Part shown: piece after piece, positions 6,746 to 20,574 of the stretch | How the letters are laid out: every line of letters starts with the position of its first letter | How positions within the stretch are numbered: position 1 is the stretch's first letter | NCBI RefSeq assembly: GCF_058153355.1 | Contig: NZ_CM177019.1 | Direction: 5' to 3' (one strand) | Length of the DNA: 64,000 nucleotides | Notes under the pieces: generated by a model | Told to the model about the DNA's origin: nothing | Database searches by the model: none | What the model saw: only the letters and a program-made list of their open reading frames with translations | Program-made: the position numbers and the translations under genes

Positions 6746-6776
<31 letters not shown>

Positions 6777-6806
6777 TCTACCCCGGTTTCCCAGATTGCA
6801 GGCATG

Positions 6807-8185
<1,379 letters not shown>

Positions 8186-14227: not shown

Positions 14228-15326
14228 ATGTTTGAAATTAATCCGGTAAATAATCGCATTCAGGACCTCACGGAACGCTCCGACGTTCTTAGGGGGTATC
14301 TTTGACTACGACGCCAAGAAAGAGCGTCTGGAAGAAGTAAACGCCGAGCTGGAACAGCCGGATGTCTGGAACGAACCCGAACGCGCACAGGCGCTGGGTA
14401 AAGAGCGTTCCTCCCTCGAAGCCGTTGTCGACACCCTCGACCAAATGAAACAGGGGCTGGAAGATGTTTCTGGTCTGCTGGAGCTGGCTGTAGAAGCTGA
14501 CGACGAAGAAACCTTTAACGAAGCCGTTGCTGAACTCGACGCCCTGGAAGAAAAACTGGCGCAGCTTGAGTTCCGTCGTATGTTCTCTGGCGAATATGAT
14601 AGCGCCGACTGCTACCTCGATATTCAGGCAGGTTCTGGCGGTACGGAAGCACAGGACTGGGCGAGCATGCTTGAGCGTATGTATCTGCGCTGGGCTGAAT
14701 CGCGTGGTTTCAAAACTGAAATCATCGAAGAGTCGGAAGGTGAAGTGGCGGGTATTAAATCCGTGACTATCAAAATCTCCGGCGATTACGCTTACGGCTG
14801 GCTGCGTACTGAAACCGGCGTTCACCGCCTGGTGCGCAAGAGCCCGTTTGACTCCGGCGGTCGTCGCCACACGTCGTTCAGCTCCGCGTTTGTTTACCCG
14901 GAAGTCGATGATGATATCGATATCGAAATCAATCCGGCGGATCTGCGCATCGACGTTTATCGCGCATCCGGCGCGGGTGGTCAGCACGTTAACCGTACCG
15001 AATCTGCGGTGCGTATTACTCACATCCCAACCGGGATTGTGACCCAATGCCAGAACGACCGTTCCCAGCACAAGAACAAAGACCAGGCCATGAAGCAGAT
15101 GAAAGCGAAGCTTTATGAACTGGAGATGCAGAAGAAAAATGCCGAGAAACAGGCGATGGAAGATAACAAATCTGACATCGGCTGGGGCAGCCAGATTCGT
15201 TCTTATGTCCTTGATGACTCCCGCATTAAAGATCTGCGTACCGGGGTAGAAACTCGTAACACGCAGGCAGTGCTGGACGGCAGCCTGGATCAATTTATCG
15301 AAGCAAGTTTGAAAGCAGGGTTATGA
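14228..15326 (+). CDS. prfB: peptide chain release factor 2, requires programmed +1 ribosomal frameshift
   Basis: ATG at 14228; frame 0 reaches CUU UGA at 14300-14305, preceded by SD-like AGGGGG; the +1 frame from 14304 continues into the 293-aa ORF ending 15326, which contains the GGQ motif. Confidence 0.92.
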
Positions 15327-15335
15327 GGAACCAAC

Positions 15336-16853
15336 ATGTCTGAACAACACGCACAGGGCGCTGACGCGGTAGTCGATCTTAACAATGAACTGAAAACGCG
15401 TCGTGAGAAGCTGGCGAACCTGCGTGAGCAGGGGATTGCCTTCCCGAACGATTTCCGTCGCGATCATACCTCTGACCAATTGCACGCAGAATTCGACGGC
15501 AAAGAAAACGAAGAACTGGAAGCGCTGAACATCGAAGTTGCCGTTGCTGGCCGCATGATGACCCGCCGTATTATGGGTAAAGCGTCTTTCGTTACCCTGC
15601 AGGATGTGGGGGGCCGCATTCAGCTGTACGTTGCTCGTGACGATCTGCCGGAAGGCGTTTACAACGAGCAGTTCAAAAAATGGGACCTCGGCGATATCCT
15701 CGGCGCGAAAGGTAAACTGTTCAAAACCAAAACCGGCGAACTGTCTATCCACTGCACCGAGCTGCGTCTGCTGACCAAAGCACTGCGTCCGCTGCCGGAC
15801 AAATTCCACGGTTTGCAGGATCAGGAAGCGCGCTATCGTCAGCGTTATCTGGATCTCATTTCTAACGATGAATCCCGCAACACCTTTAAAGTGCGTTCGC
15901 AGATCCTCTCTGGCATTCGCCAGTTCATGGTGAATCGTGGCTTTATGGAAGTTGAAACGCCGATGATGCAGGTGATCCCAGGCGGCGCGGCGGCGCGTCC
16001 GTTTATCACCCATCACAATGCGCTGGATCTCGACATGTACTTGCGTATCGCGCCGGAACTGTACCTCAAGCGTCTGGTGGTTGGTGGCTTCGAGCGTGTA
16101 TTCGAAATCAACCGTAACTTCCGTAACGAAGGTATCTCCGTACGTCATAACCCAGAGTTCACCATGATGGAACTCTATATGGCTTACGCTGATTACAAAG
16201 ATCTGATCGAGCTGACCGAATCGCTGTTCCGTACTCTGGCACAGGATATTCTCGGTAAGACCGAAGTGACCTACGGCGACGTGACGCTGGACTTCGGTAA
16301 ACCGTTCGAAAAACTGACCATGCGTGAAGCGATCAAGAAATATCGCCCGGAAACCGACATGGCGGATCTGGACAACTTCGACTCTGCGAAAGCGATTGCT
16401 GAATCTATCGGCATCCACGTTGAGAAGAGCTGGGGTCTGGGCCGTATCGTTACCGAGATCTTCGAAGAAGTGGCAGAAGCACATCTGATCCAGCCGACCT
16501 TCATTACTGAATATCCGGCAGAAGTTTCTCCGCTGGCGCGTCGTAACGACGTTAACCCGGAAATCACTGACCGCTTTGAGTTCTTCATTGGTGGTCGTGA
16601 AATCGGTAACGGCTTTAGCGAGTTGAATGACGCGGAAGATCAGGCGCAGCGCTTCCTGGATCAGGTTGCCGCGAAAGACGCAGGCGACGACGAAGCGATG
16701 TTCTACGACGAAGATTACGTCACCGCACTGGAACACGGCTTACCGCCGACAGCAGGTCTGGGAATTGGTATCGACCGTATGGTAATGCTGTTCACCAACA
16801 GCCATACCATCCGCGACGTTATTCTGTTCCCGGCGATGCGTCCGGTGAAATAA
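15336..16853 (+). CDS. lysS: lysine--tRNA ligase (constitutive)
   Basis: 505-aa class II aa[38 protein letters not shown]... Confidence 0.95.
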
Positions 16854-16888
16854 GCATTACGTTATGCTCACAACCCCGGCAAATGTCG

Positions 16889-18314
16889 TAATGCCAGTCA
16901 GTTAAGCAACTGACTGGCTCTTTTTCGGGGCTGTGGGGTATTTCCAGGGCCTCTCCTTTACCACTCTCGGGAAGGCCCTTTCCCTTCTTGTCGGTAATTT
17001 CACAAGTTGTCCCATACTTGCAAGATCGCGCATCAGCTCCGGTATACGTCCCGGTGAAGCGCCCTGCAATGTCATCAGCATTCTCATCACCATTCCGCAT
17101 GATTCTGAGAAACTCAGTTGATTCGGCCAGTAACCTTTCAGATGTTCCGCCATTTTAATCATCTGATATCTCACCAGATTATAAGCCAGTAAGACACCCC
17201 ACAGCTCTTGCTCCACAAGCTCCGGCTTTTTACTTCTCAGCGTCAGCCTGCTCAGTTGCATCGTCTGTTTTATCTCCCTGTATCCCAGTTCGATTTCCCA
17301 GCGATGACTGTACAGATCCGCCATTTCTCCTCCGGGGAAGCGCATGGCGTCCGTCATCGACGTCAGCAGATGGCAGACTTTTCCTTTGCGCGTCACGGTC
17401 AGCAGGCGGGCTGTCACTTCATTTCCCAGTCCCGGCCACTTTTTTCGTGCCTGCGGGCTGGTTTTCAGCTTCACCAGATGATCGCCTTTACCCAGTTTTC
17501 TGATCTCTTCATATTGCGCTCCCTTTCTGAGAGGTATCATCCAGTGGCGGTGTTCTCCCGCCAGGCTCCAGGCATTTAACAGTCCCAGTGAGTAATAACC
17601 TTTATCCATTAACGTCAGAGTGTTATCGCCGGTTTGTTCTATAAGTTGCTCAGCAAGCTCATTTTCGCTGTTCTTCATCGTGCCGAAGGCTGCAGCCGTC
17701 AGCAGATGGCTGGTCAGTTCCATCTGGCAGACCATTTTGACCTGCGGGTAGAGCGCCGGGTTCCCGGCATGTGTCTGGCGGGGGAAGGCTGCATCGTTCT
17801 CTGGTGTATCCGGTGTGCGCCAGAACACACCATCGATGGCCAGCAGGGTCAGGCCGCACCAGTGCGGATGCGGCGTGGCGTTATGCCAGAGCTGCGCTGT
17901 TTTCGTGAACACGCGGCGGACAGCCTCACTTCCCAGGCGCTGGCGGGCCTGAATAACGGCACTGGGGGCAACGAAGGGGCGATTGCCCGGCAGCATGATG
18001 TCCAGGCGATTCACAATCTGGTGAAGAGGTTCTTTACGCTCAAGCGCCATGCCAACAATACACCAGACCATCATTTCGAGGGGAAGACGGCGCTTGCGTA
18101 GCGTTACAGTACCTGATTCGGCAAGGCAACGAGAGATGAGTTCGGGGTCGAGGTAATCCCCCAGAGAAGTCAGTGGGTTACGCAGAGAATCGTAACGGGA
18201 TACCAGATCAAGAGCCTGTCCAATGTGCATAAAAAAATCCGGAAACAAGTGAGCGTTTCCGGATTCTTACACAGCCACTGGATCGGTCAACTGATCCTTA
18301 ACTGATCGGCATTA
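16889..18314 (-). mobile_element. IS4 insertion sequence (1426 bp) with 12-bp target-site duplication
   Basis: Terminal inverted repeats taatgccagtcagttaag (16889-16906) and cttaactgatcggcatta (18297-18314); flanking direct repeat cggcaaatgtcg at 16877-16888 and 18315-18326. Confidence 0.9.
16902..18230 (-). CDS. insG: IS4 transposase (DDE)
   Basis: ORF 16902..18248; start assigned to the internal Met ([40 protein letters not shown]...), 442 aa, recognised as the IS4 transposase. Confidence 0.9.
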
Positions 18315-18333
18315 CGGCAAATGTCGGGGTTTT

Positions 18334-18877
18334 TTATTTAAGCTGGGTAAATGCAGATAATCGTTTTCTGGCTTCGCGATTTGTCGCCTGCATCACCATC
18401 CACGGACTGAACGCCCACGGCGTGGCATCAATACCGCGTAAAACCGCTGCTAAATCACACCATTGATAATCCATCACTTCATCATCGTTGATCTGTAACG
18501 CACTGGTCGTGCGTGCGGCAAATACCGGACATACTTCATTTCTACAATGCCATTCGGATCGGTGGCGCGATAGCGAAAGTCAGGATAGATTCAGGAGGTG
18601 TAATTTCCACGCCAAGCTCATAACGGCAACGGCGGATCACCGCGTCTTCGTTGCTTTCTCCCAGTTGTGGGTGCCCACAAACCGAGTTAGTCCACACGCC
18701 CGGCCATGCTTTTTTGCTAAGGGCGCGGCGGGTAACTAATAATTGCCCTTTGGCATTAAACAGCCAGCAGGAGAACGCGAGATGTAAGAGAGTGTCTGCC
18801 GTGTGTGCGGCATACTTTTCCAGCGTACCCGTGGGAACTCCCTGTGCATTCAATAAAATGACGTGTTCCGTTTGCAT
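18334..18877 (-). pseudogene. idi: isopentenyl-diphosphate delta-isomerase, disrupted by a frameshift
   Basis: N-terminal 98 residues match Idi ([28 protein letters not shown]...ITPPESI), then the frame stops at 18542. The remainder ([30 protein letters not shown]...AFTQLK*) continues in another frame to 18334. The break lies at gaatctatcctgac, which lacks the YP codons of intact Idi. Confidence 0.8.
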
Positions 18878-19125
18878 AATTTCTCACATGTAATTCTAAT
18901 CACTCATCATTATAGATAATTGAAGAGTGAAATGATTAACCAAGTGAGCGTTTATCGACAACCGCCCGTTTTGAGCGGATGTCGACAGGTAAAACCATTT
19001 AAAAAAGCAGCATCATATATTTGAAGCGACTTTCAATGGCCATTGCAACACAGTCAGAAATGACAGGAATAGAGAGAGTAAAAAGCAACAACAGACTGAA
19101 TATAGCGCGCATTAAAAGATTCATA

Positions 19126-20574
19126 TTATTCTCCATGCTCATTTTTCTTCAGCTTGCGCATCAGAAGCCACATACGTACTGTCCTGACTTTTAAATCTTT
19201 ATCAGAGACGGATTCCTTCACCAGATCAGCATGATGCTGATAGCCATTAAAGAAGACGTTCAGCGCAACGGCGCTAAGGGTTGCGAGCATAATGCCGCTA
19301 TGCAGCAACGGTTGCAGTACGGCCGGTAACTTAGAAAAGAAATCGTGAGAGAGCGTCGGAGTCATGCCAACGCCGAGACTGATCGCCACAATATAGAGGT
19401 TGTAACGGTTAGTGGTGTAGTTACAGCGCGACAGAATTCGAATCCCCGTCGCCAGTACCATGCCGAACATCACCAGCCCTGCGCCGCCAAGCACAAATTG
19501 CGGAATCGAGGCTACCAGCACCGCCATTTTGGGCACCATGCCAAACATGATTAATATGATCCCCGAAGAAATACACACCCAGCGACTATGAACGCGAGTC
19601 ACGCTAACCAGGCCAACGTTTTGAGAAAATGACGTGTGGGGGAAGCTGTTAAACGTTCCGCCTATCATTGTCCCTACACCATCGACACGCAGCCCGCGAA
19701 TAATATCGTGCGAAGAGAGTTTACGACCGACTATTTCACCCAGTGCCAGGAACATCCCCATCGACTCGATAAACACGATGATTAACACAGCGGTCATGGT
19801 TAGAATAGAAACGGGGTCAAATACCGGCATACCAAACGACATTGGGGTGACAATCGCAAACCACGAAGCATCATGTAGCCCGGACAAATTGACTTCATTC
19901 ATCATCCACGAAAGTAAAAAGCCAAATACAATCCCCAGTAATACGGCGACGTTGGACATAAATCCTTTCGCATAGCGAGTAATGAGCAAGATAAAAATTA
20001 AGACGGCAAAGGAGATACCTAAATAAACGGGATTACCATATTGCGGATTCCCTTCACCTCCAGCGGCCCAGTCAATACCGACCTGAATAATGCTAAGCCC
20101 GATAGAAGTAATAACCACACCGGTAACCAGTGGCGGGAATAAAGGCATTAAGCGACCGATAAGTGGTGCTAATAATGTGGTGATAAATCCCGCGGCGATA
20201 GTGGCACCAAATATCCCCAGCAGGCCGATATCCGGGTTCATGCCAATGGCTATCATTGGTGTTACAGCAGCAAAGGTTACCGACATAATCACCGGCAGAC
20301 GGATCCCCATAAAGCGGCCGATACCGATACATTGTAATAATGTGACGATCCCGCAGCAAAAGAGATCCGAGCTAATGAGCATCGCAATAGCTTCTTTTGA
20401 GAGGCCCAGTCGGTCACCAATCATAAGAGGAACAGCGACTGCACCTGCGTACATTACAAGGACGTGTTGCAGACCGAGTATGATCAGCTTTCCTGGTGAT
20501 AATATGCGGTCAACCTCATCAGTTGGGCGGTCTTGCCCTGAAGATGAGGGAAGTTGGGAATCTATGGCGCTCAT
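19126..20574 (-). CDS. uacT: uric acid permease (NCS2 family)
   Basis: ORF 19126..20703; start assigned to the internal Met (MSAIDSQLPSSSGQDRPTDEV...), 482 aa, multi-TM transporter. Confidence 0.9.
   Translation of the reverse strand: MSAIDSQLPSSSGQDRPTDEVDRILSPGKLIILGLQHVLVMYAGAVAVPLMIGDRLGLSKEAIAMLISSDLFCCGIVTLLQCIGIGRFMGIRLPVIMSVTFAAVTPMIAIGMNPDIGLLGIFGATIAAGFITTLLAPLIGRLMPLFPPLVTGVVITSIGLSIIQVGIDWAAGGEGNPQYGNPVYLGISFAVLIFILLITRYAKGFMSNVAVLLGIVFGFLLSWMMNEVNLSGLHDASWFAIVTPMSFGMPVFDPVSILTMTAVLIIVFIESMGMFLALGEIVGRKLSSHDIIRGLRVDGVGTMIGGTFNSFPHTSFSQNVGLVSVTRVHSRWVCISSGIILIMFGMVPKMAVLVASIPQFVLGGAGLVMFGMVLATGIRILSRCNYTTNRYNLYIVAISLGVGMTPTLSHDFFSKLPAVLQPLLHSGIMLATLSAVALNVFFNGYQHHADLVKESVSDKDLKVRTVRMWLLMRKLKKNEHGE

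Follow-up and report, generated by a model that had tools for sequence, protein, structure and literature searches.

We analyzed a stretch of 64,000 nucleotides (contig NZ_CM177019.1 of RefSeq assembly GCF_058153355.1; hereafter, the window), in which a complete IS4 insertion sequence separates two convergent genes, lysS on the plus strand and a pseudogenised idi on the minus strand (Table 1). The original prediction had described an IS4 insertion in a short convergent intergenic region, bounded by a 12-bp direct repeat on both sides and extending from 16877 to 18326, and each of these points agrees with what we find: the uninterrupted lysS-idi spacer measures 42 nt, the repeat CGGCAAATGTCG is exact at 16877-16888 and 18315-18326, both copies immediately adjoin the 1426-bp element, and the interval comprises exactly the left duplication, the IS4 and the right duplication. 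On the idi side, the element ends 7 bp beyond the idi stop codon. Upstream of lysS, the prfB gene (14289-15326) contains its normal programmed +1 frameshift, is so annotated in all relatives, and is not a pseudogene.

Table 1. Features of the IS4 insertion and its surroundings (positions are those of the window)
Feature	Position	Strand	Basis or remark
lysS (lysine--tRNA ligase), intact, upstream neighbour	15336..16853	+	NF009101, 1110 bits
Predicted lysS terminator, split, 5' part, AACCCCGGCAAATGTCG	16872..16888	+	Fold of reconstructed empty site
Left target-site duplication copy, 12 bp, CGGCAAATGTCG	16877..16888	.	Sequence and repeat finder; single-copy at empty site
IS4, complete, 1426 bp	16889..18314	-	99.9% full-length identity to annotated E. 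coli IS4
Terminal inverted repeat, transposase-distal end, TAATGCCAGTCAGTTAAG	16889..16906	+	
Inward terminator-like hairpin, 11-bp perfect stem GCCAGTCAGTT/AACTGACTGGC, loop AAGC, then TCTTTTT	16893..16925	+	Terminator scan and fold
Transposase gene, intact, 442 aa from ATG	16902..18230	-	The element's only long ORF
Inward hairpin AAGAATCCGGAAAC/GTTTCCGGATTTTT, then U7 ending at transposase ATG	18231..18268	-	Fold and covariation
Promoter-like TTGACC-16-AAGAAT with TG, candidate transposase promoter	18263..18290	-	1 site vs. 1.0 expected by chance
Terminal inverted repeat, transposase-proximal end, TAATGCCGATCAGTTAAG	18297..18314	-	16/18 match to other end
Right target-site duplication copy, 12 bp, CGGCAAATGTCG	18315..18326	.	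Sequence and repeat finder
Predicted lysS terminator, split, 3' part, CGGCAAATGTCGGGGTTTTTT	18315..18335	+	T-run overlaps idi stop codon 18334-18336
idi pseudogene	18334..18877	-	4-bp deletion between 18590 and 18591; 1-bp deletion between 18541 and 18542

Taking membership in IS4 as at least 95% nucleotide identity over the full length of 1426 bp, we found that the window element aligns over 1426/1426 bp, at 99.9% identity, with many loci for which RefSeq gives the annotation "IS4-like element IS4 family transposase", and that it differs from the commonest variant by 1 nt, a synonymous substitution (17226 C/T). Its length and identity, its 18-bp imperfect ends, a duplication within the 11-13-bp range, and an empty site in which the target occurs once are all those of IS4. 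The terminal inverted repeats had been given as 18 bp; they are indeed of this length, but are imperfect, matching at 16 of 18 positions, which is normal for IS4. The IS4 end motif occurs only twice in the 64-kb window, compared with 0.00 occurrences expected from shuffles. Across complete E. coli genomes, we found IS4 in 2686 of 5426, with a median of 1 copy, a maximum of 24, and roughly 5,500 places in total.

The transposase gene gives the same assignment, with matches to the Pfam families Nterm_IS4 (PF13006, 3e-33) and DDE_Tnp_1 (PF01609, 8.7e-32, profile positions 3-200 of 200) and to the NCBIfam model transpos_IS4_1 (NF033592, 304.5 bits against a cut-off of 115). A 448-aa form starting from an upstream TTG (18248) is also annotated in RefSeq, where both lengths occur. 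The motif Y(2)R(3)E(6)K, which defines the YREK signature of the IS4 family (PMC2266710), is present at residue 307, so that the element combines this motif with a single ORF carrying a DDE domain and an IS4 N-terminal domain. From IS4-family membership and the intact ORF we infer a cut-and-paste mechanism, through hairpin intermediates, carried out by the DDE transposase, and the window copy is an intact, presumably active IS4.

The flanking repeat is present in single copy at the empty site of related genomes, as expected if it is a target duplication. An uninterrupted lysS-idi site, i.e., the 800-bp junction without an IS and with one 12-mer, was found in 5394 of 5426 complete E. coli genomes, including the closest strain, 24A16CRGN010, in which the empty site reads CACAACCCCGGCAAATGTCGGGGTTTTTTATTTAAG and the 12-mer occurs once. 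The lysS flank of this strain (1.4 kb) is 100% identical to the window, and a length difference of 5 bases at the 800-bp junction is accounted for by the two idi deletions (4 bp and 1 bp). The window as a whole is collinear with E. coli 24A16CRGN010 apart from IS4 and one further IS insertion, and the nearest complete RefSeq E. coli genome is 98.2-99.3% identical along it.

The reconstructed empty site folds into a 9-bp stem with a 4-nt loop, AACCCCGGC-AAAT-GUCGGGGUU, followed on the lysS strand by U6 (-15.4 kcal/mol, z -3.0), while the idi-strand version of this hairpin is followed by a poor U-run. The features of an intrinsic terminator, a G+C-rich stem-loop and, after it on the transcribed strand, a U-run, are present at the native site and at both IS4 end hairpins described below, and by this definition the IS4 target is predicted to be the canonical intrinsic terminator of lysS. 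The centre of the duplication coincides exactly with the dyad of this palindrome. We propose that an intact IS4 copy transposed into the 42-nt convergent spacer by two strand transfers, which would have been staggered by 12 bp and symmetric about the dyad of the terminator palindrome AACCCCGGCAAATGTCGGGGTT and its T6, and that subsequent gap repair would have produced the 12-bp duplication.

Is such a target typical of IS4? Five other E. coli IS4 sites (aroA-ycaL, obgE-dacB, creD-arcA, ravA-kup and yjbE-pgi) all consist of an A-tract, a palindrome and a T-tract, with duplications of 12-13 bp. For a broader sample, we collected flanks adjoining the IS4 right-end 23-mer in species-representative genomes (38 loci) and the left-end 23-mer in metagenomes (120 loci), obtaining 145 distinct outward flanks, whose counts ignore kinship and mix true IS4 with relatives that are 64-92% identical to it. 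The consensus of these flanks is C-N-S-C-N4-G-G-N-G-S-S-N-TTTTTT. Position 1 is C in 85% of flanks and position 4 in 73%; positions 9 and 12 are G in 60-66%, and positions 17-19 are T in 78-86%. At the expected distance, at least six T in eight were found in 67% of the 145 flanks vs. 4.0% of 20,000 random control positions. We were able to reconstruct 17 empty sites, all 17 of which are hairpins whose loop centre lies at most 1 nt from the duplication centre (duplications 11-13 bp, mean MFE -14.2 kcal/mol, mean z -4.7).

Together, these patterns suggest that the preferred target would be a short G+C-rich palindrome with C at duplicated positions 1 and 4 and symmetric Gs, bordered by an A-tract and, on the opposite side, by a T-tract, which in practice would amount to an intrinsic, often bidirectional, terminator. 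An AAA-N20-TTT target consensus for IS4, reportedly described by Mayaux et al. in 1984, agrees with this architecture. The term "terminator" expresses a preference and not a rule, since somewhere between a fifth and a third of IS4 flanks carry no clear T-run, including that of the commonest site in the sample (ATCTTGGTTCTG), which we take to be the chromosomal IS4 site of E. coli K-12. We also considered a fixed insertion orientation, as the transposase-proximal end adjoins the T-run in all five lysS-idi copies discussed below. This was rejected as a general rule because T-runs flank both IS4 ends at similar rates (at least six T in eight for 62% of left and 73% of right ends) and because single sites are occupied in both orientations (L065 vs. 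L079, L080 vs. L099, and L120 vs. L110).

The presence of a duplication-centred hairpin at 17 of 17 targets, combined with stem sequences that vary widely among them, would also fit a transposase that recognizes structure, in the form of a cruciform or a single-strand hairpin extruded during transcription or replication, such that any terminator would serve as a target regardless of sequence. We regard this mode of recognition as unlikely, given that specific bases are favoured beyond what pairing explains (C1 in 85%, C4 in 73% and G9/G12 in 60-66%), that targets with poor hairpins exist (z of +0.2 at the L080 site and -1.7 at the ATCTTGGTTCTG site), and that DDE transposases of the IS4 family, such as those of Tn5 and Tn10, act on duplex targets. 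It concerns only how the target is recognized, and is compatible with our main explanation, in which IS4 inserted into the lysS terminator as one of its preferred targets.

The original prediction had also proposed that the insertion may affect lysS termination. The lysS terminator hairpin is indeed split, but IS4 carries a predicted terminator of its own that likely relocates termination: the left-end hairpin starts 5 nt inside the IS4 end facing lysS, where it is placed to stop lysS transcripts, and the left junction folds well (71 nt, -26 kcal/mol, z -3.9). The T-run of this hairpin is kept in diverged IS4 relatives, while its 5' arm is fixed by the search pattern in the relatives sample, so that support for the structure comes from the terminator scan and the fold. 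At the opposite end, the hairpin proper (18268-18238 on the minus strand, with a 9-14-bp stem) is placed to stop read-through from the idi side before it reaches the transposase gene. This right-end hairpin is conserved with 5 compensatory base pairs among 17 IS4 relatives (64-92% identical), and as these five pairs have changed on both sides, selection on the structure is well supported. The terminator scan missed this minus-strand hairpin, probably since its stem can extend into the T-run. A further scan match, a hybrid hairpin at the right junction (18306-18327, plus strand), was rejected as no better than shuffles (-10.5 kcal/mol, z -1.0), and a search of 16000-19200 against Rfam returned no RNA family, the sole match (E 0.23; 19 bits, where the gathering score is 100) being no better than chance.

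The candidate transposase promoter overlaps the 5' arm of the right-end hairpin, and its hexamer regions are conserved in IS4 relatives. It is thus possible that the transposase's own transcript may start inside the hairpin and escape termination, while transcripts reading through from outside would form the hairpin. In this arrangement, transcription entering from lysS or idi would stop within ~40-85 nt of the IS4 edge; the split host terminator would be functionally replaced for both convergent genes, and the transposase would be insulated from outside transcription. Because IS4 carries a predicted inward terminator at each end, lysS termination was probably replaced and not lost, and the modelled structures make its relocation by ~40 nt more likely than its loss. 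Judging from the predicted hairpins, the insertion is most likely near-neutral, with little effect on the adjoining genes.

The idi gene was likewise said to be pseudogenised, and we identified two frameshift deletions in it, a 4-bp slip in ATCTATCTATCC and the loss of 1 bp in an A-run, relative to an intact allele that is otherwise 100% identical, which points to a very recent pseudogenisation. The truncated idi product of 111 aa occurs only in Logan assemblies, two to three of them (SRR8656992, SRR31441161), in contigs with an identical idi-side junction that break off after 23 nt of IS4, as would be anticipated for a repeat present in several copies. The IS4 junction and the idi frameshifts together thus form a lineage marker common to two public read sets.

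These observations bear on whether the insertion could instead have been functionally consequential, with destruction of the shared terminator altering lysS 3'-end formation or stability, or causing antisense transcription or read-through into idi linked to its decay. Points that would fit such an effect are the splitting of the native hairpin precisely at the dyad, the weak fold of the right-junction hybrid hairpin (-10.5 kcal/mol, z -1.0), and the co-occurrence of the idi frameshifts with the IS4 junction in two independent read-set assemblies. Against it, both IS4 ends supply strong inward terminator-like hairpins, idi is intact and annotated in three E. coli genomes occupied at the same site, and the window idi is broken by two internal deletions located 205-257 bp from the IS. 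Moreover, idi is non-essential in E. coli, in which the MEP pathway makes both IPP and DMAPP. We therefore hold a functional consequence of this kind to be quite improbable, and from the sequence comparison, the decay of idi appears mechanistically unconnected with IS4, having arisen through separate frameshift events.

Searching all 5426 E. coli genomes, we found IS4 at the identical base pair and in the same orientation in four (BEN5202, GCUET01, MS 21-1 and FDAARGOS_944). The flanks of these strains are ~3.3% diverged from the window, and since the strain with identical flank, 24A16CRGN010, is empty, the four occupied strains and the window do not trace to one event. The IS4 copies at the site are up to 9-12 substitutions apart. 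The BEN5202 copy additionally has a 3-bp indel, making it 1429 bp long, and its duplication is a variant, CGGCAACCGTCG, in both copies, an allele that many genomes, ATCC 11775 among them, carry unoccupied at 100% identity. The occupied sites in the four genomes and the window thus appear to represent at least two to three independent events, which on one base pair indicates a preferred target, and such independent hits in other E. coli lineages follow from the fit of the lysS-idi site to IS4's preferred architecture; at the same time, an occupancy of only 4/5426 makes it a recurrent target and not a major hot spot.

That a single ancestral insertion spread by descent or homologous recombination, with no target preference at this site, seems very unlikely, for while all five copies share orientation and junction base pairs and occupancy is limited to 4/5426 genomes, the BEN5202 12-mer differs in both duplication copies and equals a common pre-existing empty allele, the window lysS flank matches that of an empty-site strain at 100% identity but differs by 3.3% from those of all occupied strains, the IS4 copies are up to 12 substitutions and a 3-bp indel apart, and independent IS4 sites elsewhere have the same target architecture. 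Taken as a whole, our explanation, namely that IS4 inserted into the lysS terminator at a preferred target, that termination was replaced with near-neutral effect, and that the idi frameshifts arose separately, has in our estimate a probability of roughly 0.88.

The insertion had further been suggested to create a substrate for recombination, and one of the occupied relatives, though not the window itself, illustrates this. In FDAARGOS_944 (L004, 3399-4824), no right-hand duplication follows the IS4 at the lysS site, and in place of idi the element runs into an ISEc60 fragment, hok/gef and cysH. With an offset of 1 nt, the sequence now adjoining it matches what flanks the opposite end of another IS4 insertion (metagenome contig L059), and the arrangement was probably produced by an inversion between two IS4 copies. 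For the window, the main consequence of the insertion is most likely a 1.4-kb homology patch available for IS4-IS4 recombination.

Our searches also returned a range of IS4 relatives and other elements. The exact IS4 right-end 23-mer (L011-L048) was found in Photorhabdus, Photobacterium, Buttiauxella, Rosenbergiella, Rahnella, Serratia, Pectobacterium, Pseudomonas citri and Kosakonia, with at least 16 contig-end copies in the draft genome of Kosakonia oryziphila REICA_142 (L027-L042), which points to an IS expansion. A 265-bp contig labelled "Methylobacterium mesophilicum" (L024) carries the flank of ATCTTGGTTCTG, the K-12 chromosomal site, and so may be E. coli contamination. Several metagenomic relatives have large internal deletions with both ends kept (L133 1481-2074, L096 8200-8651, L152 1549-2793 and L146 489-1578); for instance, L133 joins IS4 positions 1-403 to 1236-1426 (~594 bp), and L096 joins positions 1-351 to 1320-1426 (~458 bp). 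These may be non-autonomous, MITE-like derivatives.

Within the window, a second insertion of ~1.4 kb relative to 24A16CRGN010 occupies 6751-8147, between trhA (yqfA) and ygfZ. Its 326-aa product is an IS110-family "RNA-guided transposase" (NF033542, 253 bits), REP-like copies of AATNCNAGGCNTGATAAGACGCGTCAGCGTCGCATCAGGCA lie at 8023-8063 and 8142-8182, and the element is presumably IS621, a REP-targeting bridge-RNA element. A third IS (62159-64000) is an IS110-like ISSso6 element with a 391-aa transposase (62248-63423), downstream of whose gene a perfect 205-bp tandem repeat (2.5 copies, 100% identity, 63484-64000) runs off the window end. E. coli reference copies of the ISSso6 element span ~310 bp less and appear to hold ~1.5 repeat units fewer. 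IS110/IS1111-type elements encode a guide RNA in their non-coding end, and the duplicated non-coding end of this ISSso6-like element may deserve a look.

The IS4 of E. coli K-12 is the founding member of the IS4 family and a 45-year-old model insertion sequence. The window copy shares with it (insG, ISfinder IS4) the 1426-bp length, the 18-bp imperfect ends, the 442-aa DDE/YREK transposase and the 11-13-bp duplication, differing only in its lysS-idi insertion site and, within the element, in one synonymous substitution. IS10 and IS50, the insertion sequences of Tn10 and Tn5 and the most thoroughly studied members of the family, resemble IS4 in their DDE and YREK residues, single ORF, duplication of about one helical turn, and symmetric target consensus read by a two-fold-symmetric transpososome; both also have devices that shield the transposase from read-through activation. 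Their own hot-spot consensus is short and not terminator-like, and their duplications are 9 bp, compared with the 11-13 bp and longer target arms of IS4 (PMC2266710).

Extragenic palindromes also serve as targets for IS1397 and ISKpn1 (IS3 family), IS621 (IS110 family) and ISRm22 (IS4 family), and insertion into REP/BIME palindromes has been described as occupying a "safe" intergenic niche (PMC1525189). These elements differ in targeting REP repeats, in the IS110 family by RNA guidance, whereas the terminator hairpins chosen by IS4 are unique sequences bordered by A/T tracts, and its duplication is long and symmetric. Terminator-like sequences immediately upstream of and inside ISs (IS200/IS605 and others) have recently been reported, and read as limiting transposase expression (bioRxiv 10.1101/2025.07.22.666184). 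That work describes a statistical trend at the family level, with which the terminator replacement proposed here agrees; in our case, one element is followed base by base, with a dyad-centred duplication and two predicted inward terminators.

Since nothing in the element, in the length of its duplication, or in its palindromic target with A/T flanks departs from textbook IS4, the finding itself is already known, and its significance is small: one more IS4 copy between genes, where it looks neutral, in an E. coli/Shigella-type genome rich in ISs. What it adds is that the point of insertion coincides exactly with the dyad of the predicted lysS terminator, that this base pair is hit repeatedly, and that conserved, predicted inward terminators probably make such insertions nearly silent. 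It can be used for the annotation of the IS4 boundaries, the duplication and the IS-independent decay of idi, and as a worked example of terminator choice and of the probable preservation of termination. While the target consensus is old knowledge, the proposed functional replacement of the terminator, conserved with covariation, may not have been described explicitly before.

Relatives sharing the ends and target type of IS4 are present in Photorhabdus, Kosakonia, Pectobacterium, Buttiauxella, Rosenbergiella and Photobacterium. We tentatively suggest, at somewhat less than even odds, that IS4 may be a dedicated terminator-swapper, which reads a duplex palindrome and its A/T arms, integrates on the dyad, and substitutes its own inward terminators, such that its insertions become nearly invisible to the genes around them and its transposase is kept insulated. 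If true, this would explain the persistence of IS4 and its spread across the Enterobacterales.
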